From Candidatus Woesebacteria bacterium RIFCSPHIGHO2_01_FULL_39_23 (GTDB taxonomy: Bacteria; Patescibacteriota; Microgenomatia; UBA8517), in the NCBI GenBank assembly GCA_001792305.1, contig MGGH01000023.1:34347-98346 (forward strand): a DNA stretch of 64,000 bases, in the 5' to 3' direction. The position numbers and the translations under genes were made by a program. How positions within the stretch are numbered: position 1 is the first letter of the stretch; every line of letters begins with the position of its first letter. Positions 4,775 to 26,082 of the stretch are shown one piece after another. Below the pieces are notes generated by a model. That model did no database searches and had not been told where the DNA came from. It was given only the letters and a program-made list of their open reading frames with translations.

Positions 4775-5361
4775 ATAAGGTAAAGGTCCTGGTTGAAGGG
4801 TATGCGAAGATAAATTCTGATGGGACTTGGGATGCGACTTCGAGCACTACGTTTATTGACACTGGAAAGCTCAAAATTGTCGTTGACCCAGGATGTAGTC
4901 GTGAGCTACTTTTGAAAGCTTTGAAAAATGAAAATTTGAAAACAAGCGATATTGACTGCGTGTTTGTAACGCATTATCACCCTGACCACTGTGCTTTGAT
5001 GGGCATATTTGAAAACGCAACAATTTACGATTCTGTCCAATGGCAAAATGGGCCTCTGGGTGGGGATATTGGTGGGCTTCTGCCCGAAACCGATATTGAA
5101 GTCGTTAAGACACCAGGGCATTCGCCTGAACATGCATCACTTGTTGTCAATACCAATGAGGGAAAATATGTTGTAGCTGCGGATGTTTTCTGGTGGAAGG
5201 CGGGTGAAGAGCAGAAGGTAGATATAGAAAAGCCGGATGATTTTGCATCTGATATATCTGCGCTAAAAGAAAATCGCAGGAAAGTTTTGGAAATAGCTGA
5301 CTTTATAATTCCTGGGCACGGAAAGATGTTTAAAGTAGAAAATGAAGGGTTGGGTGAGTAA
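4771..5361 (+). CDS. MBL-fold metallo-hydrolase
   Basis: HxHxDH motif (VTHYHPDHCA). Its start overlaps the ALDH stop (ATGA). Confidence 0.75.
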   Translation: MNKVKVLVEGYAKINSDGTWDATSSTTFIDTGKLKIVVDPGCSRELLLKALKNENLKTSDIDCVFVTHYHPDHCALMGIFENATIYDSVQWQNGPLGGDIGGLLPETDIEVVKTPGHSPEHASLVVNTNEGKYVVAADVFWWKAGEEQKVDIEKPDDFASDISALKENRRKVLEIADFIIPGHGKMFKVENEGLGE

Positions 5362-5401
5362 AGATCTGAATCTAAGAACCCAAAAGGCAACTGTTGGCAG
5401 T

Positions 5402-5899
5402 TTAGGGGCGGGAAGCGATTTTAAGCGCATACTTCGCATAAAACTTCACGTGTTTTTTGAGATTGTACTTTGGATCATCTAAGTCTCTTTCAGTGAACCA
5501 TTTGTGGTTTGTAACAAACTTATCCTTGGAACCTCTAGGGTCAACATCTGTTGTCAAAAAAAATCGATAAGCGACATGCGTATGTTCTTCAGAAACCTGA
5601 TGAATGTCTGTGAAGGTTGGTGTAACTACAGATCTGCTTTTCATGCCTCCCATATCAGAAAAAATATTCTCTTTTGGCAAGCTATTTCTTGGATCTAACA
5701 GTTCTAATTCGCTTTTTTTGATTCCTGTTTCCTCTTCCATTTCTCTGTAAATTGTGGTTTCGGGGTCTTCGTCTTTCTCAATGTGCCCACCAGGCCCAAA
5801 CCACGAATTGTATTTCTTATTAAAAATCAGAAGAACCTTATCATTTTTAATAATGAAACAGTTAATTGTATATTCAAGAACTTTGTTTGTATGAGCCAT
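5402..5899 (-). CDS. NUDIX hydrolase
   Basis: Nudix box GPGGHIEKDEDPETTIYREMEEETGI. Confidence 0.8.
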   Translation of the reverse strand: MAHTNKVLEYTINCFIIKNDKVLLIFNKKYNSWFGPGGHIEKDEDPETTIYREMEEETGIKKSELELLDPRNSLPKENIFSDMGGMKSRSVVTPTFTDIHQVSEEHTHVAYRFFLTTDVDPRGSKDKFVTNHKWFTERDLDDPKYNLKKHVKFYAKYALKIASRP

Positions 5900-5905
5900 G
5901 GATAA

Positions 5906-6160
5906 TTATAATCTAATATTCTTTATATTTGAAACTGCCATCCATGAGGACATTGATCCAAATCCTGATTTGTTAATACTAAATGGTTTTACTTTTTGAG
6001 GATTTTTGAGAAAGACTAGAATGCAGCATTTTTTATCCTTTCGACCACTTTCTATAAGATTCCGGATAAAAAACTTTATTAAGGGCTTTTCAGTTGTATG
6101 TCGAAAATAAACTGGATATTGAGGCCTGTATATTAATTGCTTAAATGGAAAAAGAACATG
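5906..6160 (-). pseudogene. Orphan 3'-terminal fragment paralogous to the ASCH-like gene at 8964..9395, with no start codon
   Basis: The reverse-strand frame is open from the stop at 6163-6161 down to the stop at 5908-5906 without any ATG. It encodes ...KDKKCCILVFLKNPQKVKPFSINKSGFGSMSSWMAVSNIKNIRL*, versus the intact gene's ...KDKKCCILVFLKNPQKVKPFSINKSGFGAMAAWLTVNNINKIKI*. Confidence 0.6.
5964..6040. repeat. Copy 1 of a perfect 77-bp direct repeat (cctgatttgttaatactaaatgg...gcagcattttttatcctt)
   Basis: Identical to 9022..9098 by direct comparison. The flanks show only partial similarity. Confidence 0.9.
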
Positions 6161-6283
6161 TCAAAGATATTTTTTCTTACGATCTAGGATTTGATAAGCT
6201 ATCTGGTATAAACAAGATTGATCCATGATTTTTTTAACAGTTGGCAATTTATTGGTGGCAAATGATGGGCGAATCGGTTCTAA

Positions 6284-7270
6284 TTAATTAGTATTTTTGA
6301 ATAAATCGGGGTTAATTTTCCAATCAGGAGTTGCGTAGTTATCTCCCCAAACCCCTTCACTGTCAACAGAGTTGAAGTAAAAAATAGTCTTTAAAAGTGG
6401 GTATTTTTTACTGCTATTTATTGCGTCAAATAACCAATTTTTCTGGAAATCTTGGTTACCTGTTACACCAAACTCCGCTATTATCACAGATTTATCATAA
6501 TCTTTCACCATGTTGTATCTGTCAGCGAAAATATTATCGAAACTTCTAGCTTTTCCATAATTGTCTATGTCCCACTGGGGATATTCGAAAACTGATAAAC
6601 CAATAAGATCGACGTAATTCCCTCCAGGCCAATAATTGTTGGCGTTAGTATGGCCAACCGGTGACCAAACGAAATAATTTTTCGAATCTATTTGTCTGCA
6701 ACGGTTTACAAAATACCGATATGAAGCGATGTAACTTTCACTATCCTCTTTTGCCCAAGGATACCTTCCTGTCACATTTTCCATTTCGTGACCCCAGCGG
6801 ATAAATACAGGATTTAGTGAGTCTTTGAAATCTAAGCAGACAGCATCAGTAGCTTCATCGTAACTTCCTTTTAGAATATCTTCAAATAAGGTACTAGTTT
6901 GATCAACAGAGCCATCAAAAGTAAACGGCTCCACAGTTACCATAGTCCATCTGTTATTTTTACTTGCCTCATTGAAAAAATTATCTAATTCCCCTTTTTC
7001 GTATTCGTTCCATTTAATAAATTCGTGCACGATTGATATTGTATTGACGGAATCGAAATTGCCGTTCGGGTCATAAACACCGAAATTGATTTTTATGTTT
7101 TTCCAGTCTATGTTGCAGTTCCTTTTTAAAAATTCGAACGGTGAATTACAAAGAATAGATTTATAACCCCAGGTAATACCATTTATTGCGTCGGACCCCC
7201 TAGTAATAATAGCGGATATGGGGAATAAAAAAACTAATAAACTAAAAGTAATAAATAAGTATTTTTTCAT
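6284..7270 (-). CDS. Secreted clan GH-A glycoside hydrolase, GH26-like (beta-mannanase/endo-glycanase type)
   Basis: Signal peptide (MKKYLFITFSLLVFLFPISAI). IRWGHEMEN matches the GH26 acid/base region (R..HEMN), and IIAEFGV is a nucleophile-Glu strand. Overlaps the upstream GT2 gene by 4 nt. Confidence 0.55.
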   Translation of the reverse strand: MKKYLFITFSLLVFLFPISAIITRGSDAINGITWGYKSILCNSPFEFLKRNCNIDWKNIKINFGVYDPNGNFDSVNTISIVHEFIKWNEYEKGELDNFFNEASKNNRWTMVTVEPFTFDGSVDQTSTLFEDILKGSYDEATDAVCLDFKDSLNPVFIRWGHEMENVTGRYPWAKEDSESYIASYRYFVNRCRQIDSKNYFVWSPVGHTNANNYWPGGNYVDLIGLSVFEYPQWDIDNYGKARSFDNIFADRYNMVKDYDKSVIIAEFGVTGNQDFQKNWLFDAINSSKKYPLLKTIFYFNSVDSEGVWGDNYATPDWKINPDLFKNTN

Positions 7271-8853
7271 AATCTGGATTTACGACTAAAAGATTTATTT
7301 TCATTAAAGTGATTTTTTATGATCATAAAGATAGAAATTGTGTAAGTAATAATATTTAATATTACAAAGTACAAATATCCAGAAACCATAGGAGAACCTT
7401 TTGCATATAAGGAAATATATGACAAAAAGATAATAACCAGGTAAGGTGTTAACATGCCTATTTTTAAAGGGCGATTACCAATTTCACCCTTTGAAGTTAC
7501 TTTAAAAGAAACGTCTTTTCTTGAAATACATACAATAATTCCAGAAAGAACACCAAGTAGCACCCAAGGCCATCTAATTAGTTGAAAAACAAACGTTTCC
7601 CACGAGATAAATTTTGAATTGGATGGTCTAAGCCATCCCCTATTTTTGATCCAAATTATTATGCTAAGTGTAATAATGGAAAGGATCCATGTGTAAAAAC
7701 TGAAAGCGATGTAGGTCACATTGACCCATGGCTTGTTTGTAACCAAAGCAATTATAGGTAGGCTGTACGCAAAAACTATTGTTGTAGAAAACAGAGGATA
7801 CCATAATTCAGAGAACAGAAATTGCAGTTTAAAGCGCGAAGGTAGATTTTTAAGGTATTTAGGAGTTACTGTCAGCAATATTATAATTAGACTCCTGGTC
7901 CATTGGAATTCTTGAAACATACTATCTGTAAAACTTTCTGCTCCGTCACCGTGGGCAATTGCATCTGTTGCGTGGATTCCACGCCACTTGTTCGCGTTCA
8001 TCATAAGTGTTGTTGTATGGTCTTCAGCCAATTCAGGCCCCAAACCTCCAATTTCTTTTAAAGCTTTTGTGCGCACGGCGTAGTGCGACCCGATGCAAAG
8101 AGGTGCCCAGCCGGCATTATACCCAGACTGTAGGGGTCCGTGCAGGGTGGCTTCAGCATATAGCCTTGCCCTTGCTGCCCAGCTTTTCTTTGCATTTGCG
8201 TCGCAAATGCTTGGAGCAGATACATATCCTACTGCCGGGTCTGCAAACGGTCTTAGCATCTCTTCTAAATAACCGGCTTCCGGTACGTGGTCGGCATCCA
8301 TTTGGATTACGAATTCGTAGCGGTAATAGCCGTAATTATCGTAAAAGTAGGCAAGATTGCCTTCTTTGCATTTTGTTTTTCTTGGCCACTTTGGGCGATG
8401 ATATTCTACAGCCCCCTTTCTGGTTGAAACAAAAACTCCATTTCGCTTGCACCACTGGTAGACTTCTTCTGTCGGGTCTTCGTCTGCAAGCCAGGTATCG
8501 TGTGCGTATTTCTGGGAAAGCATAGCTGAAAGCGTCTTTTTGACAACTTCAAAAGGTTCGGATGGGGCTTTTGTAACAACCATGGCTACCAATAGCCCTT
8601 TGGGTATAGGTAGTTTGGGATTGGGTTTTTTCATTTTGGCCACAAAGAAGAAAAAATATGCAGGCATCATCATATTCCAGGCAATCAAGGTGCTGTTTAA
8701 CACAAATCCCAGTCTTCCTACAACATGGCTTTCGTCCAGCCACCATATCCAAAAAACAGCTGCGAAGATAAGCCACAGTGCAAATAAAACGTTAAAGAAT
8801 ACCTTTTGTCTTTGTGTCATTATATCGACCAGATATGGGATACTAATATTCAT
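7267..8853 (-). CDS. Processive family-2 glycosyltransferase, cellulose-synthase-like (BcsA/Csl-type), integral membrane
   Basis: N-terminal TM helices, then LADEDP (D,D), KEGNLAYF (KAG-like), QMDADH (DxD), GPELAEDH (TED-like), QEFQWTRS (Q..RW-like), and about 6 C-terminal TM helices. Confidence 0.6.
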   Translation of the reverse strand: MNISIPYLVDIMTQRQKVFFNVLFALWLIFAAVFWIWWLDESHVVGRLGFVLNSTLIAWNMMMPAYFFFFVAKMKKPNPKLPIPKGLLVAMVVTKAPSEPFEVVKKTLSAMLSQKYAHDTWLADEDPTEEVYQWCKRNGVFVSTRKGAVEYHRPKWPRKTKCKEGNLAYFYDNYGYYRYEFVIQMDADHVPEAGYLEEMLRPFADPAVGYVSAPSICDANAKKSWAARARLYAEATLHGPLQSGYNAGWAPLCIGSHYAVRTKALKEIGGLGPELAEDHTTTLMMNANKWRGIHATDAIAHGDGAESFTDSMFQEFQWTRSLIIILLTVTPKYLKNLPSRFKLQFLFSELWYPLFSTTIVFAYSLPIIALVTNKPWVNVTYIAFSFYTWILSIITLSIIIWIKNRGWLRPSNSKFISWETFVFQLIRWPWVLLGVLSGIIVCISRKDVSFKVTSKGEIGNRPLKIGMLTPYLVIIFLSYISLYAKGSPMVSGYLYFVILNIITYTISIFMIIKNHFNENKSFSRKSRL

Positions 8854-8963
8854 AGAGAAGCAAGAATTATAGAGTATTTAGGGAAACTAAGTCAATCGTG
8901 ATAAGTTGATGCTTATCGATTATACGGTGCTACGTTTAGAATATATTTAAGACTATGTTTGGA

Positions 8964-9395
8964 TCATATCTTAATTTTGTTGATGTTGTTGACTGTAAGC
9001 CACGCAGCCATTGCGCCGAAGCCTGATTTGTTAATACTAAATGGTTTTACTTTTTGAGGATTTTTGAGAAAGACTAGAATGCAGCATTTTTTATCCTTAA
9101 ATAATTTGTAGTAATAATCAATCTTATTTTTCTCAATTCCGTCTGGTCTGTGGAATTTGTTTAATAATTCTTCTACTCTTCGCGGATTTAATTTATCAAA
9201 TTGTAAAACTTTGGATACCTTCGCTTTTACAACAATAAGTTCCCCGGAGTTTTTGAAATAAACAGTGTCACTTGCCTTTACTTTGTCCCAAGGAGCAGAC
9301 TTGTTCTTAAGCCAGCGAGACTCGATATTTTTTGTACCATTGAGGATTTTGGGAATGAGGCCCCAAGATTTTTTCATTATTGCCAGATGATCCAT
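8964..9395 (-). CDS. ASCH/PUA-like domain protein
   Basis: 143 aa. MKKSWGLIPKILNGTKNIESRW...DTVYF...GELIVVKAKV resembles ASCH-domain proteins. The last ~45 codons contain repeat copy 2. Confidence 0.4.
   Translation of the reverse strand: MDHLAIMKKSWGLIPKILNGTKNIESRWLKNKSAPWDKVKASDTVYFKNSGELIVVKAKVSKVLQFDKLNPRRVEELLNKFHRPDGIEKNKIDYYYKLFKDKKCCILVFLKNPQKVKPFSINKSGFGAMAAWLTVNNINKIKI
9022..9098. repeat. Copy 2 of the perfect 77-bp direct repeat
   Basis: Identical to 5964..6040. Lies inside the 3' end of the ASCH-like CDS. Confidence 0.9.
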
Positions 9396-9446
9396 GTTTT
9401 ATGATATGTTTTTCCGAGTGAAAAATGAATTCCCCTATAAAATTAC

Positions 9447-10178
9447 TCAAATTAAATCGACATTCATGGCTATAGCCAAAGGTGAAGCGTTCATTATATA
9501 TTTATACCCTGACAAATAATGTGTAAGTTTTTCATCGTCTAAAGACATTTTGCCGCCGTAAGATGGATCCAATACAACCAACCGATGTTTAGGTTCTCTT
9601 ATTAGAGTTATAAAGTGGTCAGTATGTTCCGCATAACCTAAGTAAAAGTAGTCTCCACGAATCGCCAATGGGCCGACTGTTTGGGTATGATTAACTATCC
9701 AATCTACAGTTAATGGTTGGTACACTAATTCGATTTGTCTTTCTTCATTGTATGATCTAGTCAAGTTATGTTGCGTCCTTGTGTCTGTGTAAAAAGTTAA
9801 TCTCGTGTTTGGGAAATGTCGAACGAAGGTTGCAGCAACCTTAAGCGGATAGTAACCTGGATATACACCGTAGGACTCCATGTAAAGTTCTCTTTGAAGG
9901 CGTTCGAGATCAAAGGGTGTTCTGGTTAAATCGCGTAGCATCATTAAAAGGCAAGCGTTACCACACGTTAAGGCATCTCTTTGATGGTGCACCTCAAAAA
10001 AGCCCTTCCTTTCCTTCATTTCATTTAATCCTCCAATATTTAATTTGACCAAAATAAATGCATAAAGAAAATAAAATTGTAACGAAAAGAGTTGTAAATT
10101 CAGTAAAGAAATAGCCAATATCGACAAGTTCCCCATTTCCTGAGATTCTAAGTGTGAACCCAATGATATAGTTGACAA
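9447..10178 (-). CDS. Standalone peptidase C39-like (papain-fold cysteine peptidase) domain protein. Start uncertain: either the upstream TM-containing start at 10178 or the internal Met at 10019.
   Basis: HHQRDALTCGNACLLMM fits the C39 Q..DCG.ACL active-site pattern, and HTDHFITL supplies the His. No ABC transporter domain is attached. Confidence 0.5.
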   Translation of the reverse strand: MSTISLGSHLESQEMGNLSILAISLLNLQLFSLQFYFLYAFILVKLNIGGLNEMKERKGFFEVHHQRDALTCGNACLLMMLRDLTRTPFDLERLQRELYMESYGVYPGYYPLKVAATFVRHFPNTRLTFYTDTRTQHNLTRSYNEERQIELVYQPLTVDWIVNHTQTVGPLAIRGDYFYLGYAEHTDHFITLIREPKHRLVVLDPSYGGKMSLDDEKLTHYLSGYKYIMNASPLAIAMNVDLI

Positions 10179-10381
10179 GAGGAAAGATGAAGATGGCTAG
10201 TTTCCTTAAGTTCAGGCTGAAATCCTTTGCGAAAGACCTGATCAAAAAGACTGATGCGAAAAGGATTATTATCTCGACAAAAATTGCTTTGGACATAACA
10301 AATTTTCCTTTCTGGTTGGTTAGTGTAGCATTTAAAAAATTTATTATCTTTTAAAAATTTAAGCGTGGTAGAATTGAGCTT

Positions 10382-13324
10382 ATGAGTGAGCAGAAGAAGC
10401 TTAATAAGGAGCAAAAGGAAACCGTGGAGTTTGGGAGTGGGCCGCTTTTGATAATCGCAGGAGCGGGTACGGGGAAAACAACTGTCATAACTGAAAGAAT
10501 AAAGCATTTGATATCTTCCGAACTAGCAAAACCCCAAGAGATTCTTGCGTTAACTTTCACTGAAAAAGCCGCGCGGGAAATGGAAACCAGAGTTGATGAA
10601 ATTATGCCTTATGGTTATACGCAAATGTGGATCATGACGTTCCACTCCTTTTGCGATCGGGTCTTGCGAACTGAGGCACTTCATATTGGTCTTGACCCGA
10701 GGTACAAGTTAATGACAGAAGCAGACGCAACGGCTTTAGTCCGGAAGAGCTTGTTTAAATTTGATCTTGACTATTTCAGACCTTTAGGGAATCCGACGAA
10801 ATTTATTAGCGGAATATTACAACACTTCTCTCGATTGCAAGATGAAGACATATCGCCCGCGGAATATTTCCGCTGGGCTCAAAATCACAACTCCCGCCTT
10901 CGCCGAAGTTACGGCGGGCAAGCAAAACTTAAATCTGAAAATAGTGAAGAAATAAAGAAATGGAAAGAATTAGCTGGGGCGTACAGAACTTATGACGAGG
11001 TCAAAGTTAAAGAAAACGTCATGGATTTTGGGGATTTGATAACAAAGACATTAAAACTTTTCAGAGATAGGCCAAATGTATTGAAAGAATATAGAGAAAA
11101 GTTTAAGTATATTTTGGTAGACGAGTACCAGGATACAAACTTTGCCCAAAACGAACTGGTAAAACTTCTTGCGGGTAAGAAGGGAAATGTAACCGTCGTC
11201 GCAGATGATGACCAAAGTATCTATAGGTTTCGCGGGGCCGCTATTTCAAACATAGTCCAGTTTCGAAAAAGTTTTCCCAAAACCCGTGTTATCACTTTAA
11301 TCCAGAACTACCGCTCTACCCAGGAAATTTTGGATAAAGCATATCAATTGATTCAGAATAACAACCCCGATAGATTGGAAGTTGTAGAAAAAGTTGACAA
11401 GAAGCTTGTTTCGCAAGTCGCCAAAGACGGAGAGTCTATTAAATTTATACATGAAGTTAGGGTTGAAAACGAAGCGGAAGCAGTAGCTAAGGAAGTTACT
11501 AAGTTACTAAGTTACAAAGATATTAAGTATCAGTACAAAGATTTTGCGATGCTAGTCCGCGCAAACAACCATGCAGAGCCGTTTATTAGAGCTTTTCAAA
11601 GACACTTAATTCCCTATCAGTTTTTAGGGCCGGGAAGACTTTTTAGACAAAGTGAGATAGTTGATCTTATTTCGTACTTGCGAGTTTTATATAATTTTGA
11701 GGATTCGGTATCCCTCTATAGAGTGTTGTCTATCGAATATTTTGACATTTCGGCTCGTGATTTAGCAAAAATCGGTAACTTTGCGAAGAGATATAACCTT
11801 TCAATGTTTGAGGCATGCGAGAAAATCGACGAATTATTTGTGACAGACGAGACAAAAGAAAAAATAAAAAATATGGTCGGCTTGGTGAATAAACATTTAA
11901 AGCTGGTTCGAAAGGAAACTGCGGGTCAAATCTTGTATTATTTCCTGCGAGATACTGGACTTATTGAAAAGCTGGTAAATCCCAATTCAGCCGAGGCACA
12001 AAAAGAAGCTCTAAACATTTCAAAATTTTTCGATAAATTAAAATCTTATGAAGTAGATCATGAGGATGCGACTGTTACAACTGTCGTTGATTGGCTCGAT
12101 TTGTCTACAGAACTTGGGGAATCGCCGTTGGCGGCTGATAGTGACTGGACAGATATAAATGCGGTTAATATTTTAACTGTACATTCCAGCAAAGGCTTGG
12201 AGTTTCCGGTTGTTTTTTTGGTCAATTTGGTTGGTCAACGATTCCCATCAACGGAGCGAAGCGAGCAAATTCCGATTCCTGAGGATCTTATAAAAGAGAT
12301 TTTGCCGCAAGGTGATTTTCACCTAGAGGAAGAAAGAAGATTGTTTTACGTTGGGATGACCAGAGCCAGGGAAAGGCTTTATTTTACTGCTAGTGATTAT
12401 TATGGAGAGGGTAAACGGGAAAAAAAGCTCAGTCCTTTTATTTTCGAGACGCTTGGAGACGAAGTAATTGCCAGTGAACAGTCAACTATGGGGACCCAGC
12501 AGTTGTCTTTTTTGGACTATCAATCCGTGAAGCAGATTACTGATGCCCGGCAACCGACAACCAAGCTACATGTTGATTATTTGTCCTACAGCCAAATAGA
12601 AACTTTTAGGGTATGCCCCTTGCATTATAAGCTGGGTTATATACTGCGAATTCCGACTCCCCCCTCCGCTTCACAAAGTTTTGGGACATCAATTCACTCG
12701 GCATTAAAGAAATTTTATGATGGGGTCAAAAATGGTGAAAGTCCGACCGAAAAATATATTTTGTCACTTCTAGATAGTAATTGGGTCAAAGAAGGGTATA
12801 CAAGTCGCGATCATGAAAGGAAATTTTTGGAGAAAGGTAAAGATTATTTGAAAGGGTACTTAAATGTAGAGTTTAATCCGAAAGTAATACCTTCGCTTTT
12901 GGAACAGAGATTTACCATTCCGTTATCTAAAGAAGGCGAACGGCCGTTAAAAATGGGCGGAGTAATTGACCGTATTGATGAAGCCTATGACGGCTCAATT
13001 GAAATAATTGACTATAAAACCGGTGCCAATATCCCTTCGCAACCAGAGATTGATAAAAACCTGCAGATGACCTTTTACGCTTTAGCTTCAACAATGATAC
13101 GCGAGCAACCTTTCAACAAAGGCCCGCAGGAGGTAGTTTTGTCTTTGTATTTTTTGGACAACCAACAAAAAATTTCAACCAAAAGGACAAAGGAACAACT
13201 TGAGGAAGCAGTAAAAGAAATTTTTAAAGTACGTCGCCAAATTGAGGAGTCTGATTTTTCTTGCTCCGGCCACATGTTTTGCAAAAACTGCGAATACAAA
13301 TTAATGTGCAATGTGGATAGCTAA
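10382..13324 (+). CDS. UvrD/PcrA-type SF1 helicase fused to a C-terminal PD-(D/E)xK nuclease with a 4-Cys cluster (AddAB/Cas4-like)
   Basis: Walker A AGAGTGKTTV, helicase motifs TFTEKAAREM and VDEYQDTN. C-terminal EIIDYKTG (nuclease motif) and CSGHMFCKNCEYKLMC (Cys cluster). Confidence 0.8.
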   Translation: MSEQKKLNKEQKETVEFGSGPLLIIAGAGTGKTTVITERIKHLISSELAKPQEILALTFTEKAAREMETRVDEIMPYGYTQMWIMTFHSFCDRVLRTEALHIGLDPRYKLMTEADATALVRKSLFKFDLDYFRPLGNPTKFISGILQHFSRLQDEDISPAEYFRWAQNHNSRLRRSYGGQAKLKSENSEEIKKWKELAGAYRTYDEVKVKENVMDFGDLITKTLKLFRDRPNVLKEYREKFKYILVDEYQDTNFAQNELVKLLAGKKGNVTVVADDDQSIYRFRGAAISNIVQFRKSFPKTRVITLIQNYRSTQEILDKAYQLIQNNNPDRLEVVEKVDKKLVSQVAKDGESIKFIHEVRVENEAEAVAKEVTKLLSYKDIKYQYKDFAMLVRANNHAEPFIRAFQRHLIPYQFLGPGRLFRQSEIVDLISYLRVLYNFEDSVSLYRVLSIEYFDISARDLAKIGNFAKRYNLSMFEACEKIDELFVTDETKEKIKNMVGLVNKHLKLVRKETAGQILYYFLRDTGLIEKLVNPNSAEAQKEALNISKFFDKLKSYEVDHEDATVTTVVDWLDLSTELGESPLAADSDWTDINAVNILTVHSSKGLEFPVVFLVNLVGQRFPSTERSEQIPIPEDLIKEILPQGDFHLEEERRLFYVGMTRARERLYFTASDYYGEGKREKKLSPFIFETLGDEVIASEQSTMGTQQLSFLDYQSVKQITDARQPTTKLHVDYLSYSQIETFRVCPLHYKLGYILRIPTPPSASQSFGTSIHSALKKFYDGVKNGESPTEKYILSLLDSNWVKEGYTSRDHERKFLEKGKDYLKGYLNVEFNPKVIPSLLEQRFTIPLSKEGERPLKMGGVIDRIDEAYDGSIEIIDYKTGANIPSQPEIDKNLQMTFYALASTMIREQPFNKGPQEVVLSLYFLDNQQKISTKRTKEQLEEAVKEIFKVRRQIEESDFSCSGHMFCKNCEYKLMCNVDS

Positions 13325-13893
13325 AGAAGTCTACGTGGAAGGAAATAAATATAGATGGCACTTGAGAAGCACAAGCACGCCATAAGTATGAAGAGTGCAT
13401 TAAAACCAAAAAGCGTTACAACTGTTCCTCCAATTATTGCGCCAAAAGACATACTAAAATAATTAATCGATTCCCAAGCACCCCACTGCCTTCCCGCCCT
13501 ATCCACGCTTAAATGTTTAGAATAAACAGCATCGAAGGAGGGGCTATAAAAAGCTTCTGCTGAACCAATTAACGCCTGGATCAACGACAGAAATATAACA
13601 GAATTTACTTGTGTAAAAAGCAAATACCCCAACCCTATTACTGCGTATCCCGCTGCGACGATCAGCTCATTTTGTTTAATTTTGTCTGCAAATTTTCCTG
13701 CGACTATGGTTGTAATACCTGCTGCAAAAGCAAACGCACCCCCCGTAAGGCTGGCATCCAATAAACTTCCACCAACTTTGTCAACGAACAATGCATAAAT
13801 TGGGGCAAGCATGGCACCTGAAATTAAAATGAACGCATTTGTCCCAAGCATGATCTTTAAAGCTTTATTAAGATGAATATTAAAATTTGGCAT
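13321..13893 (-). CDS. MFS-like 6-TM protein (half-size; possible truncated transporter)
   Basis: 190 aa with 6 predicted TM helices and a motif-A-like loop (GKFADKIKQNEL). There is no partner half within 162 bp upstream. Confidence 0.4.
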   Translation of the reverse strand: MPNFNIHLNKALKIMLGTNAFILISGAMLAPIYALFVDKVGGSLLDASLTGGAFAFAAGITTIVAGKFADKIKQNELIVAAGYAVIGLGYLLFTQVNSVIFLSLIQALIGSAEAFYSPSFDAVYSKHLSVDRAGRQWGAWESINYFSMSFGAIIGGTVVTLFGFNALFILMACLCFSSAIYIYFLPRRLL

Positions 13894-14055
13894 TAATTAA
13901 TAAATTCTACTATTTATTTTGCTGAATTTGGGTGCCGATTATATATGTTTTTGTGATTTGAGTTTAGATGCGATCCGACTTACAGCAATGGGAAACCCAT
14001 TATTCTGTCCGCATCGCGATAAGGATTTTCATTGGTTAATTTCATTTTGACATTC

Positions 14056-14730
14056 TTACTTCAAGAGCTCTTTTAAAGCGTCTTTGGCAATCCAGTTGGC
14101 AGTTTTGTTGTCCATCTTTTGGATTTCTCGGGCGAGTATAATTACCGTCTTTTTAAGATTTTGATTTCTTTTACCTATTTGCCTGAGGGCCCAATTGACT
14201 GCCTTTTTAACAAAATTTCTTTTGTCTTTCGAAGCGTTTTTAATAAGAGGGAGGAATTTTAGGAATTTTTTATCAGCTGCGTTTTTGTCATGCCAGGCAA
14301 GACAAGCCATTAACGCAAAACCTGCTCTTTTTTCAAATTCTTTGTGTTTTTTTGACCATTCTGCGGCCTTATCAAATGCAAAGGGAGTTTTGTCAAATAA
14401 GTTCATGCAAATCTGGTCGCACAGGTCCCAGGAGTTAAATTCTTTTATCCAACTATCCATCTGTTTTTGGGTGACAAGTTCAGGCACATCAATCATCGAT
14501 GCTAAGATTCTCACTTCGTGGATTTTGCTACCCCACAGTTTACTAGCCAGTTTGTGTTTTTCTTGCGACTTATTTTTAAGCTCTTTTTCGATATCCGCAG
14601 CGAGCTTTCTCAATACGGGAACATTTACTCCGAGTGCATACTTTGGATTTATCCCGAATCTCGCCATCCCTTCAACATTTTTGGGGTTTGATAACAATTT
14701 AAGTTTCTTGATGACTTTTTCGATATCCAT
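14056..14730 (-). CDS. DNA alkylation repair enzyme (AlkC/AlkD-like HEAT-repeat glycosylase family)
   Basis: MDIEKVIKKLKLLSNPKNVEGMARFGINPKYALGVNVPVLRKLA is typical of the DNA alkylation repair family. Confidence 0.65.
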   Translation of the reverse strand: MDIEKVIKKLKLLSNPKNVEGMARFGINPKYALGVNVPVLRKLAADIEKELKNKSQEKHKLASKLWGSKIHEVRILASMIDVPELVTQKQMDSWIKEFNSWDLCDQICMNLFDKTPFAFDKAAEWSKKHKEFEKRAGFALMACLAWHDKNAADKKFLKFLPLIKNASKDKRNFVKKAVNWALRQIGKRNQNLKKTVIILAREIQKMDNKTANWIAKDALKELLK

Positions 14731-14765
14731 CTCTATCAGTCTATGCCCACTACTAAGTTATTTTA

Positions 14766-15503
14766 TCAATATTCGATAAATTCTAAAATTTCCCTCGCCA
14801 ATCTTTTCGGATACTTTACTGGAATACTGTGGTTACAGGCAAATGAGATAATTTTCGCGTTTTGGAAATGTTTATAAAGCTCTGTGCCATGAGTTCTGAC
14901 AATTGCCTGATCTTTGGTTCCATAGGCAATTAGGGTTTTATTGATTATGCTCTGTGTTTCTTCTGGCCAATTATGAGCCAAAAGGTCTTTGCAACAGAGT
15001 GCAACCGACTTCGCGTCGCTGTTTTTTAGAAACCCTGGATCCATAGGTATTAGATTTTTGATAACCGTTTTAAGATATTGGTGGTTAGAGTTTAGTATTT
15101 TTTTAATCACACGGTCGACAAAATAAAAGTTGACACCGAGCCAGATTAAAAACTTATAAGAAAGTGGAGACCCTGATTTTGGGTTTCGTAAGGGTACCGA
15201 GATAATGATTAACTTTTCCACTTCTTTTGGGAATCTTATGGTGTATTCCAGGGAGATATAACCGCCAAGCGAATGCCCTACCAAAATAAATGGGGGTTTA
15301 ATATTTATCTTTTTAAGCTGATCTTTAAGATAATTTGGATAGGTCTCAAAATTTAAAGGAACACTGTTGTAATAAGTTCCGTATGGATCTATATCTATTG
15401 CATGACAACTGTATTTATTTTTAGGCAAGGATTGAATTAACTTGTCCCAAAGTTGTTTTGTATAGCCTAAACCGGGAATAAAGACGATTGTTTGTTTTTG
15501 CAT
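14766..15503 (-). CDS. Alpha/beta-hydrolase fold protein
   Basis: Nucleophile elbow ILVGHSLGG. Confidence 0.7.
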   Translation of the reverse strand: MQKQTIVFIPGLGYTKQLWDKLIQSLPKNKYSCHAIDIDPYGTYYNSVPLNFETYPNYLKDQLKKINIKPPFILVGHSLGGYISLEYTIRFPKEVEKLIIISVPLRNPKSGSPLSYKFLIWLGVNFYFVDRVIKKILNSNHQYLKTVIKNLIPMDPGFLKNSDAKSVALCCKDLLAHNWPEETQSIINKTLIAYGTKDQAIVRTHGTELYKHFQNAKIISFACNHSIPVKYPKRLAREILEFIEY

Positions 15504-15506: not shown

Positions 15507-16328
15507 CTAAAATGGTAACAGAAATTTAGAATAGGCGCCGGGATATTCAACTTCTAAACCCCCAAAACTTTTTTTGAAGCGGGAGAAACCGAGCCACGAT
15601 TTTAGAGGGAATCTATCGTCGTAAACACCTTCAAAATCAAAAACCTTGCACTTTAGTTTCTTTGCCAATCTTATCACTTCCCAAGTAACCAAGGTTGGGG
15701 CGAATAGTTTTTTCCCTTCCGGAGTTGCGGCAGCATACATATAGTAGGCGACATAACCTGTTTCAGGCATTAAAATTCCGGCGAGAAGTTTGTTGTCTTT
15801 ATAAGCCAATAAAAGGTGTGAATTTTTTCCAAAAGCGTTGTGTATGGCGTGTATTGATTTGCCGAGTTTTAAAAACTTTCTACTTGGTTGCGCATTTAGC
15901 CAAAGGTCTACGAATCTTTCTATATCTTTTGATTTTTTGACTACTACACCCCTTTTTAGTGCAACTTTTATATTGTATCTGGTTTTATAATGCATTTCTT
16001 TTAGTACCTCTTTTTCCGATTTTGTTAAATCAATGTGAACTGTTTTACTTGGTAAATAAGGAGATTTAGTTAGTTTAAATCCATGCTTTATAAGTGGTTT
16101 ACCCTGAGCGAGGTCGAAGGGTTCTATGACAATTTGAAAGGCTCTATATTTTTTCACAACGCGGTTTATTTGATTAAAGTCGGTTATTTTAGGTCTTTGG
16201 ATTTTGACAAATGATCCGATTACTGGAAGCCTTTTTATAAAGTAATTTACACCACCAACTCTTTCCACGATCCAGCCAATACTTTTCATATATTTTGCAT
16301 ATTCCTTGGTTTGTCGAAGATCAGTCAT
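15507..16328 (-). CDS. FemAB-family peptidoglycan cross-bridge peptidyltransferase-like (GNAT fold)
   Basis: Paralog of 17027..17995: KTRYNIKVALKRGVVVK here versus KTRYNIRLAQKHGVKVIE there. The FemAB-like architecture is common in CPR genomes. Confidence 0.55.
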   Translation of the reverse strand: MTDLRQTKEYAKYMKSIGWIVERVGGVNYFIKRLPVIGSFVKIQRPKITDFNQINRVVKKYRAFQIVIEPFDLAQGKPLIKHGFKLTKSPYLPSKTVHIDLTKSEKEVLKEMHYKTRYNIKVALKRGVVVKKSKDIERFVDLWLNAQPSRKFLKLGKSIHAIHNAFGKNSHLLLAYKDNKLLAGILMPETGYVAYYMYAAATPEGKKLFAPTLVTWEVIRLAKKLKCKVFDFEGVYDDRFPLKSWLGFSRFKKSFGGLEVEYPGAYSKFLLPF

Positions 16329-17026: not shown

Positions 17027-17995
17027 TTATAAAGAAGTCTTAGTAAGACTAAACTTAGCTTTAGTTCTTAAAACTAGCCAACGGATTTTTTCAGCAATTC
17101 TATAAAGATGATAAAGGGGGTGTGCTACTAAATCCCAACTTCCTAAAAACTCAATAACCTGTGGGTTATATCCCTCTTTAAATTTTGTAAATCCCTTTCC
17201 AGGCTCCCTTCCCCAAAGGTCAAAAATCTTATAACCCCGGCGCTTGCCAAATCTAATTGCCTCCCACATCATAAGGTTATTTGTCATGACATTTTTGTAT
17301 TTGTCGGAACTGGCACCGTATGGGTAGTAAAGAATTTTGTCGTAGGTAAACAAAATCCAGGTTGTGATAATTTCACTTTTATATTTAGCAACCAGAAGAT
17401 GAGCTAGGGGTGATCGGTGTTCGGTGATCGGTGTTCGGTGAAGGTGCTTCCACATAAGGCGGTGATATTCTGGTGTGTGAGCATAAAAACCTTGTCTTTT
17501 AGCTGTCTCAAAAGTCAGTTCCAAATATTTTTCAAATGCTTTATTTGAGTTATCCTCAATCACTTTTACTCCGTGTTTTTGGGCAAGACGGATGTTGTAG
17601 CGGGTTTTACCGGAAAAACTTTTCAGGAGTTCGTCTTCTGGTTTTGTTAAGTCGATTCGGAAAGTTGTAGGAGTAAATAAAGTTTTACCAGGGACAGCGT
17701 TGTTTTTTTTGAATAAATGAATTATTGAATTATTGACCTCACTTTTTATAATATTTGGTTCCAATTTTATAAATATTAGATTTTTTTCTTTAGCAATCTT
17801 TTTTAGAAAAACAAGCATTTCTTGTGTTGGTTTTGGCCCTTTGATAAACATGCCAATTTTCCATGGCGTAAAAGGGATTTTATGAAGAGTAATTACGCCA
17901 TATTTGGTTTCCAAAACCTCATTTCCCCATTCTTGTCGAAACTGCGCCCACTCGTGAGATTGTAAGGGGTGTTTTGGCTCTCTTGTTTTTACCAT
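17027..17995 (-). CDS. FemAB-family peptidyltransferase-like protein
   Basis: Homologous to 15507..16328. The N-terminus is MVKTREPKHPLQSHEWAQFRQEWG. Confidence 0.55.
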   Translation of the reverse strand: MVKTREPKHPLQSHEWAQFRQEWGNEVLETKYGVITLHKIPFTPWKIGMFIKGPKPTQEMLVFLKKIAKEKNLIFIKLEPNIIKSEVNNSIIHLFKKNNAVPGKTLFTPTTFRIDLTKPEDELLKSFSGKTRYNIRLAQKHGVKVIEDNSNKAFEKYLELTFETAKRQGFYAHTPEYHRLMWKHLHRTPITEHRSPLAHLLVAKYKSEIITTWILFTYDKILYYPYGASSDKYKNVMTNNLMMWEAIRFGKRRGYKIFDLWGREPGKGFTKFKEGYNPQVIEFLGSWDLVAHPLYHLYRIAEKIRWLVLRTKAKFSLTKTSL

Positions 17996-19505: not shown

Positions 19506-21351
19506 TTATTCAAAATTGTACTCTGTTATTCTTTTTTTAATGTAGCCGTTATCAGTTTCGATTAACTCCTCCGGAATATCAGTCAAAAACCGGCTGGGGG
19601 GATTTGAGGACGTTTGGCCGAAATAAAGACGGCGGGAGGCGTAAGTTAGATAAAGAATTTCTTTTGCGCGAGTGATACCTACATATGCGAGCCGCCTTTC
19701 TTCTTCCATCCCGTCTTGTTCCCATAAAGATTGTGCATGTGGGAAAAGTCCCTCTTCCATACCGATAATAAATACAACTTTAAATTCCAGTCCTTTTGAA
19801 GCATGTAATGTCATTAGGGTAACAGCATCTTTATTTTTTTCGCCATTTAATGGATCATCTGGCAGATATTCTTGTTGAACAAGTGCGACGTTTTCCAAAA
19901 AGTCGTGGATTTTGGGAAACTCGCTAGCAACGGACCTGAGCTCTTTGATGTTTTCAAGGCGCGCATAGTCTTCGGTTGATTCAGGATTAAATTTTTCTAA
20001 ATATCTTGTGATACTCACCACTTCGTCCATCAGCTCAAGGGTGGTTTTGGCGTTTAAAGGTTTAATTTTTACAGAGTATTTTTTAAACTCATCAAATCTT
20101 CTTTTACCGATTTTTTCTACCCGCTTGGTTGAAACATGATCTTTGGGGTTAACAAGCAGTCGTAAATAGGAAAGTACGTCCTTTATTTCGGCCCGCTCGT
20201 AAAATTTCACACCACCAACCAGTACGTAAGGAATTCCTGCGTGCAAAAAAGCTTCTTCCAAAACTCGTGATTGGGCATTAGTCCTGTATAAAATTGCTAT
20301 GTCTTTATAGCTTAAATTATTTTTTAAAATTTCATTGATTATATATGTCGCTTCTTCCGACCCGCTTCTGGCAGAATAGATTTTTATTTTTGGTCCGCCC
20401 TTTTTCTTTGTCCAAAGTTTCAAGACCGGGTGAGTTGTATTTTTTGAAATAACACTGTTTGCCGCAAGCAGAATGACTTCTGAAGACCTGTAATTTTCCT
20501 CAAGATTGACAATTTTGATACCTGGAAAGTCATTAATTAAATTTGCAATGTTTCGGAAATCTGCGCCTCTCCATGAATATATTGATTGGCTTGCATCGCC
20601 TACGGCAGTTATATTCTTGTTTTTTGATACAAGCAATTTGGTGAGCAAGTATTGTATTTTGTTTGTATCCTGCCATTCATCCACTAAAACATAAGTGAGC
20701 CTATTTTCCCATTTATTTAAAGTAGGCGGATCATTTTTTAGAAGATCGACTGTGTGCAGTAGAAGGTCATTAAAATCCAGTGCGTCGGCTTTTTTGAGAG
20801 CTTTTTCGTATTCAAGATAAATTTTGAAAGTTTTTTCCTGCATTGGTGTTTTTGCGATCTCCGCATACATAAGGGGGGTCAACATTTGGTTCTTCGCCGA
20901 ATCTATGGAGGAAAGAACCGATCCGGGACTCACGGATTTATCCGAAATATTTAAGACTTTTATAATGTCTTTTATTAAGTCCTTTTGATCTTGTGTGTCA
21001 TATATGATGAAGTTTCTGTTTATTCCTATTTTTTCCCCGTCTATGCGAAGCAGCCGTGCGCAAAAAGAGTGGAAAGTTCCCGTAAAAAATGGAAAGGTGC
21101 CGGTAATTTTTTCTACTCTTTCTTTCATTTCCCCCGCAGCTTTGTTAGTGAAAGTTAGAAGTAACAAGTTTTCTGGTCTTGCCCATTTTTGCGAAAGCAC
21201 ATATGCGGCTCTTTGTGTTAGTACCCTTGTCTTGCCGCTTCCAGCACCAGCGAGGACCAGTAGTGGTCCACTGCCGTAACTTACAGCTTCTTGTTGTGCA
21301 GTATTGAGTTGATCTAAAATAGATTTCGTTATACGTTTTTGATTGTAACAT
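19506..21351 (-). CDS. UvrD/PcrA/Rep-family SF1 helicase. The N-terminal ~50 codons, including Walker A, are reachable only through a 1-nt frameshift in a T5/A5 run at 21336-21340.
   Basis: The track ORF 19506..21200 starts at LLLLTFTNKAAGEM, which is helicase motif Ia. The same frame continues upstream through GPLLVLAGAGSGKTRVLTQRAAYV to a stop at 21360-21362 with no start codon. An ATG at 21351-21349 lies in the +1 frame (MLQSK...). Deleting one A joins them as MLQSKRITKSILDQLNTAQQEAVSYGSGPLLVLAGAGSGKT. Confidence 0.7.
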
Positions 21352-22405
21352 GGCGAGATCTAAATTTTTCTTTACAAAATTCAAGCGAAAATTTTTGAGC
21401 CACTTGTGGTTGGCAAGGATTATAATTATTTTGGGGGTGTTGTGTGTGGTGTTCCTGGGTGTTGTCGGGATTGCCTCGGTTGTTAAGAAGACCCCGCTTT
21501 CAGACTATATCGATATTGTGACTGCTTTTGTGTTTTCACCAAAAGACAAAGTGAAAAATTTTGACGGTAGGACAAATATTTTGATTCTTGGCAAGGGTGG
21601 TGAAGGCCACGAGGCACCAGATCTTACCGACACCTTAGTTTTAGCCTCAGTCGATTTTGATAAAAATGCAGTTTCGTTTCTATCTATTCCTAGAGACATT
21701 TGGATAGAGTCTTTGAGGATTAAGTTGAATAGTGCTTATTATTGGGGAAACGAAAGACAAGAAAATGGAGGACTGATTCTTGCTAAATCATCTGTCGAGG
21801 AAATCATTGGTTCACCAGTGCACTACGCCGTGGTTATTGACTTTGTTTTATTTAAGGATTTGATTGACGAGGTGGGTGGAATAGAAGTGGACGTGGAGGA
21901 TTCGTTTGTGGATCATCGATATCCCATTCCTGGGCGGGAAAATGATGAGTGTGACGATGATCCTAAGTTTTTGTGTAGATATGAAACAATCGAGTTTAGG
22001 AAAGGCTTGCAATTTATGGATGGTGATACTGCTCTAAAATTTGTCCGTTCAAGAAATGCCGAAGGGGACGAGGGGACGGATATTGCAAGATCCAAGAGGC
22101 AGCAGAAGGTGATTTTGTCTTTAAAAAACGAAATTCTAAGCTGGAACATTATTTTCTCATTCAATAAGTTGTCGAACATAAAAGAATTGGTGGGATCAAG
22201 GACGGAAACAGATATGGATACAATTGCGTCGGTAATTGTTGCAAGGAAGATTTTTGACGCGAGAAATAACTTTAGGACTTTAAGCATTCCCGAAGAATTC
22301 TTGGAGGTAGCGCCAAAGTCTCCCGACTTCGACAATCTTTACGTATTCATACCGAGTGCTGGTAATTGGATGGAACTTCAAAGGTGGATAAAAAGCAATA
22401 TCTGA
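21350..22405 (+). CDS. LytR-CpsA-Psr (LCP) family cell-envelope polymer transferase
   Basis: N-terminal TM helix, then DTLVLASVD...SIPRD, the LCP signature. Confidence 0.75.
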   Translation: MARSKFFFTKFKRKFLSHLWLARIIIILGVLCVVFLGVVGIASVVKKTPLSDYIDIVTAFVFSPKDKVKNFDGRTNILILGKGGEGHEAPDLTDTLVLASVDFDKNAVSFLSIPRDIWIESLRIKLNSAYYWGNERQENGGLILAKSSVEEIIGSPVHYAVVIDFVLFKDLIDEVGGIEVDVEDSFVDHRYPIPGRENDECDDDPKFLCRYETIEFRKGLQFMDGDTALKFVRSRNAEGDEGTDIARSKRQQKVILSLKNEILSWNIIFSFNKLSNIKELVGSRTETDMDTIASVIVARKIFDARNNFRTLSIPEEFLEVAPKSPDFDNLYVFIPSAGNWMELQRWIKSNI

Positions 22406-24943: not shown

Positions 24944-26082
24944 CCGAATTTATTTATCCAAAGAACTCCCCAAAAGTTAACTCCAACCGAAATGAAAAGT
25001 AGTAGCCAATGGTGCCACTTAAGGTCAGTCTTTGTAACATTTTTAATTATTAGAAAGATTAGGAAAGGGTAAAAGTCTACCGCAAAACGGTAGCCGAATT
25101 GAGCAAAGCCTGTGGTGCCGTGCATAAAAACAACAGATGCTATTGCCAAAATTGTCAGCCAGAAAGGCACGGCCCATTTTTGTCTAATAGTTTTTATTGA
25201 ATAAATGAAAGCGGGTGTGGTGATCCAGATGGCCATACCTGACCAGGACGGTTGAATGTAGGGGAAAGTGTTTTTAATAACAGGGAGTCCTTTAAATATA
25301 ACTTCCAAATGCCTGCCAATGTATGAGGGGTGAAATAAACCGTTTTGGTACCATGGTTCCTCGAAAATTTCAGGGATAAGTAGATATCCTTTATCCCAAA
25401 TGACTCCAAACCGGGCATAGTTATACAAAGAATTAAACATTAGAAACGGCAGAAAGCCAACTACAATCTGAAAAACATCTTTAAGAAAGGAACTCTTTCT
25501 GTCCTTTGCGATAAGATAAATAAATAAAGGCAGTGCGAGGACTGTGTGGATTCTTGATAGATACGAGGCACCAAGAAATGTTCCAATTATTAGCCCTCTT
25601 TTTTTACCCGCTACCTCAAGGAGTGCAAACAACATGAAAAACATCGCGGATATTTGTCCCAGATACCACGACGATCCAACTGATGAAAGAAACCAAACAA
25701 CACTTCCAAGCCCAACTAAAGTACCTGACCAAAAGGCAACTTTGTAGTTGCTTTTGATTCTCAATGCAAGCTTGACTGTTAATAAGACTATACCTGCACC
25801 CATCAGGTGGGCTAGAATTTGCTGAGGAAAATCCTTTCCAAAAATGGCGACAAAGGGAAGAGAAGCTATAGCTGGCATTGGCGGATAAACGATGTAAAAT
25901 TTGTTTGAGCCGCCTGGAACCAATTCGGACAGCCAGGGTGGATTTTCGGCTATCCAAAACTGTCCATTTAGAAAAGCAGCTGAAAGTCTCGTAAAATAGT
26001 TATAGGGAGTGTTACCTACTGGTCCGAACAATTTATAAATGACAAAAGTAAGTATAAAAATCGGCAAGAAAAGTTTTTTCAT
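24928..26082 (-). CDS. GT-C fold membrane glycosyltransferase (ArnT-like)
   Basis: 384 aa, polytopic. Its start overlaps the start of the divergent gene at 26039 by 44 nt. Confidence 0.4.
   Translation of the reverse strand: MKKLFLPIFILTFVIYKLFGPVGNTPYNYFTRLSAAFLNGQFWIAENPPWLSELVPGGSNKFYIVYPPMPAIASLPFVAIFGKDFPQQILAHLMGAGIVLLTVKLALRIKSNYKVAFWSGTLVGLGSVVWFLSSVGSSWYLGQISAMFFMLFALLEVAGKKRGLIIGTFLGASYLSRIHTVLALPLFIYLIAKDRKSSFLKDVFQIVVGFLPFLMFNSLYNYARFGVIWDKGYLLIPEIFEEPWYQNGLFHPSYIGRHLEVIFKGLPVIKNTFPYIQPSWSGMAIWITTPAFIYSIKTIRQKWAVPFWLTILAIASVVFMHGTTGFAQFGYRFAVDFYPFLIFLIIKNVTKTDLKWHHWLLLFISVGVNFWGVLWINKFGWVSY

Follow-up and report, generated by a model that had tools for sequence, protein, structure and literature searches.

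Here we describe two adjacent genes of Candidatus Woesebacteria bacterium RIFCSPHIGHO2_01_FULL_39_23, an ultra-small member of the Candidate Phyla Radiation (CPR), that we read as a minimal synthase-dependent module for an extracellular polysaccharide, orthologous to the ApsS/ApsE core of the arabinose-containing polysaccharide (APS) system of Sinorhizobium meliloti. The genes lie on a 64,000-nucleotide stretch of contig MGGH01000023.1 (positions 34,347 to 98,346), hereafter the window, and encode a putative membrane-integrated family 2 glycosyltransferase (GT2) and a putative extracytoplasmic family 26 glycoside hydrolase (GH26). We give this explanation as a whole a probability of about 0.7; the type of module, a synthase-dependent polysaccharide module of the ApsS/ApsE kind, is very probably right. 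The pair thus belongs to a kind of system that is known, with a named orthologue, but poorly characterised. A prediction made earlier from the sequence of the window alone had proposed a synthase working with a dedicated endoglycanase on a polymer of unknown nature. The first part of that proposal stands, and the polymer is no longer a complete blank given the orthology to the APS operon. The case is built from homology, motifs, predicted folds, conserved pairing, gene fusions and synteny.

A tblastn search of plasmid sequences with the GT2 matched pSymB of S. meliloti 1021 with 53% identity over 97% of the query and Rhizobium plasmids with about 52%. The pSymB locus carries a divergent AraC-type regulator gene, two genes for short-chain dehydrogenases/reductases at the uxs1 and uxe positions, a GT2, a DUF995 gene, a GH26 and a second DUF995 gene. 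Because this order matches, we identify it with the published uxs1-uxe-apsS-apsH1-apsE-apsH2 operon and its divergent cuxR. In pairwise comparison the window GT2 is 53% identical to the gene at the apsS position over 515 amino acids, and the hydrolase shares 32% identity with the apsE-position gene over 261 amino acids (E 3e-50). Judged by these alignments, the two window genes are orthologues of the genes at those positions. The likeness to the APS system (SMb20458-63) extends to QEFQW(S/T)R and a gating loop in both GT2s, to the same catalytic Glu pair in both GH26 proteins and to the order of synthase followed by hydrolase. A related operon annotated in Rhizobium sp. CCGE532 encodes a UDP-glucuronate decarboxylase, a GalE-like epimerase, a GT2, a UDP-glucose dehydrogenase (UGD), a DUF995 protein, a glycosyl hydrolase and a further DUF995 protein, with an AraC regulator nearby. 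The S. meliloti operon directs production of APS, which binds Congo red and is induced by cyclic di-GMP (c-di-GMP) (PMC7902896, PMC12560781). Unlike that system, the window has no linked UDP-xylose synthase (uxs1) or 4-epimerase (uxe) gene, and no homologue of DUF995 (ApsH1/ApsH2) or of the c-di-GMP-binding AraC regulator CuxR was found in its 64 kb. The window GT2 is also about 120 amino acids shorter, without the N- and C-terminal extensions, and its host is a CPR bacterium rather than a diderm alphaproteobacterium. The plasmid search also returned 123 E. coli plasmid records with weaker GT2 matches (E <= 1e-8).

By sequence comparison and predicted fold, the GT2 is a BcsA-like membrane-integrated synthase with the xED base and gating loop present. 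Its top Pfam match is Glyco_transf_21, together with Glyco_trans_2_3 and Glyco_tranf_2_3, and Cellulose_synt falls just under its gathering threshold. The NCBIfam search gave a weak HpnI match and no specific family for either the GT2 or the hydrolase. Searches of Protein Data Bank (PDB) sequences, with the single GT2 and with a 51-sequence profile, returned cellulose synthases only (BcsA of Rhodobacter and E. coli, then plant CesA), at an identity to BcsA of only about 18%. The AlphaFold2 model (mean predicted local distance difference test score, pLDDT, 91; predicted template-modelling score, pTM, 0.90) has two N-terminal transmembrane (TM) helices, a GT-A domain, a long interface helix bearing QEFQW and a C-terminal bundle of about 4-5 TM helices. 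Hydropathy and model thus place hydrophobic helices on both sides of the catalytic domain, as had been predicted. A Foldseek search with the model ranked BcsA first (query-normalised TM-score, TMq, 0.70-0.71), followed by plant CesA and hyaluronan synthases. No PilZ domain was matched by Pfam, and the protein stops after its last TM helix.

The catalytic and gating residues expected of such an enzyme are conserved. All the motifs named in the original prediction can be read at codon level, the KAG-like motif being KEGN, alongside DAD and AED in the GT2 and RWGHEMEN and AEFG in the hydrolase. D124, D186-A-D188 and A276-E-D278 align to BcsA and are conserved or invariant in the family alignment; LAEDH occurs in 84 of 88 family GT2 sequences, and CxGS is conserved as well. 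The residues equivalent to the TED motif and the gating loop of BcsA, whose lack had been named as fatal to a processive synthase, are there as AED and FKVTSKG, in which T453 and K455 are invariant and F450 and V452 almost invariant. As first noted, the Q..W motif departs from the usual form, and it turns out to be a mark of the family: Q314, E315, Q317 and W318 are invariant in the family alignment and R320 is nearly so, and QEFQW(S/T)R was found in 71 of the 88 extracted sequences, most of the others being failures of the search pattern or of open reading frame (ORF) extraction. The QxxRW that BcsA-type synthases carry on interface helix 2 is therefore altered here, with Trp kept and Gln317 in place of Arg. 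Two GT2 homologues of 656-659 amino acids (P0024 and P0032) carry an extra LysM domain (PF01476).

The hydrolase, on profile matches and predicted fold, is a GH26 enzyme of clan GH-A and not GH8, as originally proposed, and falls on the non-mannanase side of GH26. Pfam PF02156 (GH26) matches with 27.3 bits against a cut-off of 20.2 (E 3e-6), and the closest solved structure to the single sequence is CtLic26A, the GH26 domain of C. thermocellum endoglucanase H (PDB 2bvd, 2vi0; E 4e-8). A profile of 72 homologues gives 5e-26 to this lichenase, 2.7e-14 to a Vibrio beta-1,3-xylanase and 5e-9 to the mixed-linkage xylanase AlXyn26A, and reaches mannanases only at 1.9e-6 or worse. The AlphaFold2 model (pLDDT 92.8) is a (beta/alpha)8 barrel for which Foldseek finds GH26 enzymes best, in the same ranking as the profile search, with CtLic26A at E 7e-17 and a target-normalised TM-score (TMt) of 0.76. 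The model places E162 just behind strand 4 and E266 within strand 7, as expected for clan GH-A, and both are invariant in all 83 extracted partner hydrolases. The HE and AEF motifs of CtLic26A align to them. CtLic26A itself is a degradative cellulosomal lichenase without a synthase link, and its specificity is not transferable to the window hydrolase. At the N-terminus a hydrophobic helix (residues 5-23 by hydropathy) is present as predicted. The subfamily comprises 486 cluster representatives (50% identity) at E <= 1e-30, among them many proteins of 550-577 amino acids with two GH26 stretches in tandem.

Pairing of the two genes is conserved well beyond this genome. More than 3000 GT2 relatives at 52-73% identity occur in CPR bacteria (Woesebacteria, WWE3, Saccharibacteria, Microgenomates, Taylorbacteria), cyanobacteria, Bacteroidota and others. 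For a census we took contigs from one genome per species, with 537 GT2 relatives, and searched the flanks of the best 80 loci by tblastn. A GH26 partner lies in the flank of about 77 of these 80 loci (loci and proteins are labelled L and P below); the exceptions are L014, whose contig ends just after the GT2, L028 and L080. Pairing is therefore far above chance. In most loci of CPR, Bacteroidota and Planctomycetota, and in one gammaproteobacterial locus, the GH26 gene stands 3′ of the synthase gene in the same orientation, at a distance of up to about 250 nt and often of less than 120 nt; the census found no sugar-nucleotide genes near the module in these groups. Alphaproteobacterial loci are complete, with uxs, uxe and DUF995 genes and in some cases UGD, the DUF995 genes being confined to them. 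In Caballeronia, uxs, uxe and UGD stand directly upstream of a minimal-type GT2-GH26 pair. Two cyanobacterial loci (L010, L011) and one of Saccharibacteria (L032) have only a GalE/Uxe-like epimerase (40-51% identity) and no decarboxylase.

Unbiased ORF clustering of the 31 loci without full uxs/uxe linkage found no third conserved neighbour beyond GT2 and GH26; five of these loci had a GalE/Uxe-like epimerase gene and five a sulfatase gene. The sulfatase-family gene (PF00884) adjoins the module in Bacteroidota and Planctomycetota (L005, at 6282-7565, and L016, L020, L022 and L023), which may be chance in sulfatase-rich genomes or a hint of a sulfated polymer. L005, from a 7-Mb genome, also has a GH130 gene (13610-14776) and a second, strong GH26 (17077-17689) 4-8 kb downstream of the module, in what looks like a nearby mannan-utilisation cluster.

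Natural gene fusions tie the two activities into one chain. P0056 (Taylorbacteria) and P0096 are single-chain GT2-GH26 proteins of about 880 amino acids in which a hydrophobic segment separates the domains and is followed by the GxDAxxGITW start seen in the free hydrolase. Because a BcsA-like topology ends in the cytoplasm, this TM linker would carry the GH26 domain outside, and the N-terminal helix of the free hydrolase is argued to do the same. Six further proteins of 853-1173 amino acids with a C-terminal GH26 domain (P0212, P0225, P0326, P0329, P0333 and P0350) are probably fusions as well. Together with the pairing of about 77 in 80 loci, the fusions support the original idea of a synthase with its own extracytoplasmic endoglycanase.

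In the window the two ORFs overlap by 4 nt, as first described, and this ATGA overlap suggests translational coupling. The promoter candidate ahead of the GT2 gene is a consensus match only, promoter-like sites being without enrichment in the region, and a search for an intrinsic terminator 3′ of the hydrolase gene found none. The coordinates of these features are collected in Table 1.

Table 1. Features of the GT2-GH26 module and the adjoining repeat (window positions; residue numbers refer to the respective protein)
Feature	Position	Strand	Basis
ApsS-like GT2, predicted membrane-integrated BcsA-type polysaccharide synthase/translocase, 528 amino acids, without PilZ	7267..8853	-	ORF, Pfam, pSymB homology, AlphaFold2 model, fold search
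ApsE-like GH26, predicted retaining endoglycanase, 328 amino acids, extracytoplasmic (anchored or secreted)	6284..7270	-	ORF, PF02156, pSymB homology, AlphaFold2 model, fold search
ATGA overlap (4 nt), GT2 stop TGA and hydrolase start ATG	7267..7270	-	direct sequence reading
Sigma-70-like promoter candidate TTGACT-18-TATAAT, 11/12 matches, ending 12 nt before the GT2 ATG	8866..8895	-	consensus match
KEGN, GT2 residues 163-166		-	codon-level check; pairs with BcsA KAGN
DAD (DxD), metal and nucleotide-sugar binding motif, D186-D188	8290..8298	-	same DADH as BcsA
CIGS, GT2 residues 253-256 (LCIGS)		-	codon-level check; pairs with BcsA FFCGS
AED, residues 276-278, equivalent to BcsA TED; D278 presumed catalytic base	8020..8028	-	alignment to BcsA
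QEFQW, residues 314-318, family-specific variant of QxxRW; Arg replaced by Gln317, R320 two residues after the Trp	7900..7914	-	pairs with BcsA QRGRW
FKVTSKG, residues 450-456, FxVTxK-type gating loop	7486..7506	-	aligns to BcsA RFAVTAKDE
Hydrolase N-terminal hydrophobic helix MKKYLFITFSLLVFLFPISAIITR, signal peptide or signal anchor	7199..7270	-	hydropathy (residues 5-23); model helix 2-24
HEME (in IRWGHEMEN), E162 predicted acid/base just after beta-strand 4	6779..6790	-	aligns to HE of CtLic26A; model strand 155-159
AEFG (in IIAEFG), E266 predicted nucleophile on beta-strand 7	6467..6478	-	aligns to IIAEF of CtLic26A; model strand 261-269
Repeat copy A, remnant of the C-terminal part (about 44 codons) of a decayed orf143 paralogue	5905..6040	-	77% amino acid identity to orf143 residues 100-143
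orf143, intact, no Pfam family; 3′ end is repeat copy B (8963-9098)	8964..9395	-	ORF, Pfam, comparison

Processivity, topology, the trimming role and the product are what we infer from these lines of evidence, and the machine they suggest would work as follows. The GT2 would sit in the membrane with its GT-A domain on the cytoplasmic side, extend the growing chain at its non-reducing end with sugar units taken from a UDP-sugar and, by analogy with BcsA, push the chain through its own TM channel, the gating loop closing over the active site. It would do so without a PilZ domain or a BcsB-like partner. The GH26, translationally coupled to the synthase, would be held outside the membrane by its N-terminal hydrophobic helix and, as a retaining clan GH-A endoglycanase, may trim or release the emerging chain in the role that BcsZ plays for cellulose. 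For an arabinan product, other parts of the genome would have to encode a UDP-xylose synthase and a 4-epimerase.

What the module makes is less certain than what kind of module it is. Uxs1 and Uxe were reportedly characterised by Gu et al. in 2011, and the abstract of Schaeper et al. from 2019 is said to describe APS as solely or mainly arabinose. We compared residues 85-335, the catalytic domain, of 56 GT2s linked to uxs/uxe with those of 29 unlinked ones and found no residue there that separates the groups; the fixed differences are at residues 74 and 493 only, both in membrane segments. Over this domain the window GT2 shares 70.8% identity with the linked group and 68.6% with the unlinked one, and identity between the groups (68.5%) is no lower than that within the unlinked group (66.9%). 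As no group-specific catalytic residue exists, there is no sign of a change of donor and the default product is that of ApsS. An arabinose homopolymer, as for ApsS, is the most probable product, and we put its chance a little short of even. Since UDP-beta-L-arabinopyranose (UDP-beta-L-Arap) and an inverting GT2 would give an alpha-L-arabinopyranosyl linkage, such a polymer would be an alpha-L-arabinopyranan. This bond has the same stereochemistry as a beta-D-galactoside, and the GH26 family also holds pentosan-active xylanases. From general GT2 and GH-A chemistry, a retaining enzyme of clan GH-A could plausibly act on alpha-L-arabinopyranan.

Several observations weigh against the ApsS/ApsE reading or its arabinan form. 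We know of no determination of the linkage structure of APS or of the activity of ApsE. Searches with tblastn found no Uxs1, Uxe or UGD homologue in the 64-kb window, and none beside the module in loci of CPR, Bacteroidota, Planctomycetota or Verrucomicrobiota, so the supply of a UDP-pentose is unproven for this host. The hydrolase has only about 22% identity to CtLic26A, and this nearest solved structure is a glucan-active lichenase. Lastly, BcsA contacts the UDP diphosphate through the Arg of QxxRW, a residue that is Gln in the window GT2; neither the mode of nucleotide binding nor processivity is to be assumed.

The missing donor genes are also an argument for a variant in which the same machine uses another sugar. 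Where uxs/uxe are not linked, as in this CPR genome, the synthase would draw on a UDP-hexose (UDP-Gal or UDP-Glc) and make a beta-galactan or beta-glucan trimmed by the GH26. UDP-Gal is the hexose analogue of UDP-L-Arap, the cyanobacterial and Saccharibacteria loci with an epimerase and no decarboxylase would fit such a donor, and the solved GH26 nearest to the hydrolase is a beta-1,3-1,4-glucanase. On the other side, no catalytic residue splits linked from unlinked GT2s and the groups are no further apart than the unlinked members are among themselves, Caballeronia joins a minimal-type pair with uxs, uxe and UGD, and sugar-nucleotide genes may sit away from the module. We consider a hexose product unlikely.

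That the module simply makes cellulose, with a GH26 standing in for the GH8 BcsZ, is very unlikely. At the sequence level the PDB matches are confined to BcsA and plant CesA, which also give the best folds, the annotation of many homologues by the Joint Genome Institute (JGI) points the same way and several are named 'cellulose synthase (UDP-forming)'. Like BcsA, the GT2 is membrane-integrated, with DxD, xED, FxVTxK, interface helices and a fold TM-score of about 0.70, and like BcsZ the hydrolase appears to be a dedicated extracytoplasmic endoglycanase beside its synthase. However, the CelA equivalog TIGR03030 scores only 57.8 bits against a cut-off of 699.1, Cellulose_synt stays under its gathering score, PilZ, BcsB and GH8 are all missing (the neighbours of the module are orf143, a C39-like ORF and NUDIX), QxxRW has become QEFQW and identity to BcsA is low. 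BcsZ, moreover, is an inverting GH8 enzyme with an (alpha/alpha)6 fold, while the window hydrolase is predicted to be a retaining (beta/alpha)8 GH26. A 53%-identical orthologue sits in the APS operon, the product of which is reported to contain arabinose. A cellulose module that pairs a synthase with a cognate non-GH8 hydrolase in a monoderm is reported in the Clostridial CcsA/CcsZ (PMC7710045), and our pair resembles it in that layout.

Another GT2 synthase of S. meliloti, BgsA (bgsBA), makes a mixed-linkage beta-glucan and is likewise linked to c-di-GMP (PMC9495663). Its partner is a membrane-fusion protein rather than a GH26. On pSymB the window GT2 matches a single place at E <= 1e-8, the apsS position. 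If bgsA lies on pSymB, as its locus tag SMb20391 implies, the apsS-position gene is much closer to the window GT2 than BgsA is. Literature searches that combined GH26 with GT2, synthase-dependent systems or CPR turned up no account of a GT2-GH26 module; the sole paper found on a GH26 in exopolysaccharide synthesis deals with Actinoplanes and a cluster of the Wzx/Wzy type.

The earlier suggestion for this pair, synthesis of beta-mannan or glucomannan in partnership with a GH26 mannanase, now appears scarcely credible. In its favour, most characterised GH26 enzymes are mannanases in CAZy, some database homologues are automatically named beta-mannanase, and in L005 the GH130 gene and second GH26 lie near the module. 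The hydrolase profile and fold rankings nevertheless put mannanases well behind the lichenase and the beta-1,3-xylanase, and no GDP-mannose genes are linked to the module in any locus examined. We also followed GmsA of Rhizobium leguminosarum, a rhizobial glucomannan lead, as a possible precedent for a bacterial mannan synthase and rejected it: gms is a Wzx/Wzy-type, UPP/holdfast-like cluster (UPP, unipolar polysaccharide) syntenic with Agrobacterium uppA-F, unrelated to the window GT2, and RL1661 was cloned together with wcaJ, the initiating transferase. Finally, the idea that the GT2 is a non-processive transferase acting on lipids or small acceptors (GT21 or HpnI-like), with the GH26 an unrelated neighbour, draws on the top Pfam and weak NCBIfam matches and on the absent QxxRW Arg, and is most improbable given the BcsA-like architecture, interface helices, C-terminal TM bundle and conserved FxVTxK loop, the near-universal GH26 pairing and the gene fusions.

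The surroundings of the module argue that it is a resident of the locus. The original prediction had treated the pair as cargo of a repeat-flanked cassette. The direct repeat is real (5905-6040 and 8963-9098), with 83% identity over 136 nt and a perfectly identical core of about 76 nt, but it proved to be the remnant of a gene: copy B is the end of the intact orf143 and copy A a decayed paralogue. An identical core within otherwise diverged sequence hints at recent gene conversion or partial duplication. Homologues of orf143 are 65% identical in L089-L091, three closer Woesebacteria contigs with a 66% identical hydrolase, and 64% in L001. An intact homologue is found downstream of the hydrolase, beside NUDIX, in L089-L091 and upstream of the synthase in another Woesebacteria genome; in the window the intact copy is upstream and the remnant downstream. 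Three Woesebacteria lineages share the order RmuC, VTT, aldehyde dehydrogenase or metallo-beta-lactamase, module, UvrD-PDDEXK helicase and major facilitator superfamily transporter. The G+C content at third codon positions (GC3) does not set the two module genes (0.374 and 0.343) apart from those around them, and a GC bump at 7.5-9 kb falls in the conserved catalytic domain. Together with this synteny and GC3, the origin of the repeat as an orf143 remnant places the module as resident in the Woesebacteria clade; as the window also has no tRNA gene, we rejected a mobile cassette or recent horizontal transfer. The repeats could mediate deletion of the module. A 5286-nt metagenome contig (L088; ENA ERZ27254869 k141_837163) is 99.5% identical to window positions 5175-10460, both repeat copies included, and the arrangement of module and repeats is therefore no assembly artefact of the source of the window.

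Between orf143 and the helicase gene, an ORF of 243 amino acids (9447-10178, minus strand) has a borderline Peptidase_C39 match (22.6 against 22 bits, with no single stretch passing) and is absent at this position in L089-L091. The window further encodes the housekeeping proteins DnaK, DnaJ, NusA, IF-2, PNPase, RNase J, FtsK and MurJ, and its proteins find their closest relatives in Woesebacteria metagenome-assembled genomes. Within 20 kb of the module are two FemAB genes, one LCP (LytR-CpsA-Psr) gene and two genes for PMT-like membrane glycosyltransferases (15507-16328, 17027-17995, 21350-22405, 22366-23880 and 26039-28537), envelope-glycan genes of a kind typical of monoderm bacteria. From the FemAB, LCP and MurJ genes we infer a monoderm-type envelope for the host, which would need no outer-membrane exporter and so fits the absence of export parts from the module.

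The analysis ties an anonymous gene pair of a CPR bacterium to a genetically studied rhizobial exopolysaccharide system. It also presents the synthase and GH26 core of the APS system as a widespread two-gene unit, with a GT2 relative in at least 537 species-representative genomes. The logic of a synthase with a cognate hydrolase is already well known; what the family adds are biochemical handles, namely the invariant QEFQW variant, a GH26 subfamily apart from the mannanases and natural fusions that fix topology. If the polymer is indeed made of a pentose, it would be an unusual substrate for a cellulose-synthase-type machine. More tentatively, and in our view rather doubtful as a whole, the ApsS/ApsE pair may be a two-gene machine, self-sufficient and spread over many phyla, for the synthesis and trimming of a pentose polymer or one of galacto configuration, for example alpha-L-arabinopyranan. 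Its BcsA-type synthase would always have Gln in place of the QxxRW Arg that is supposed to be essential. The pair would then be, to our knowledge, the first synthase-dependent exopolysaccharide system described for CPR bacteria, possibly serving attachment to hosts or surfaces; or else the CPR version would use a hexose donor, making this a family that switches product without a visible change in the active site. For the biology of the CPR, the module points to a cheap route to a surface glycan.

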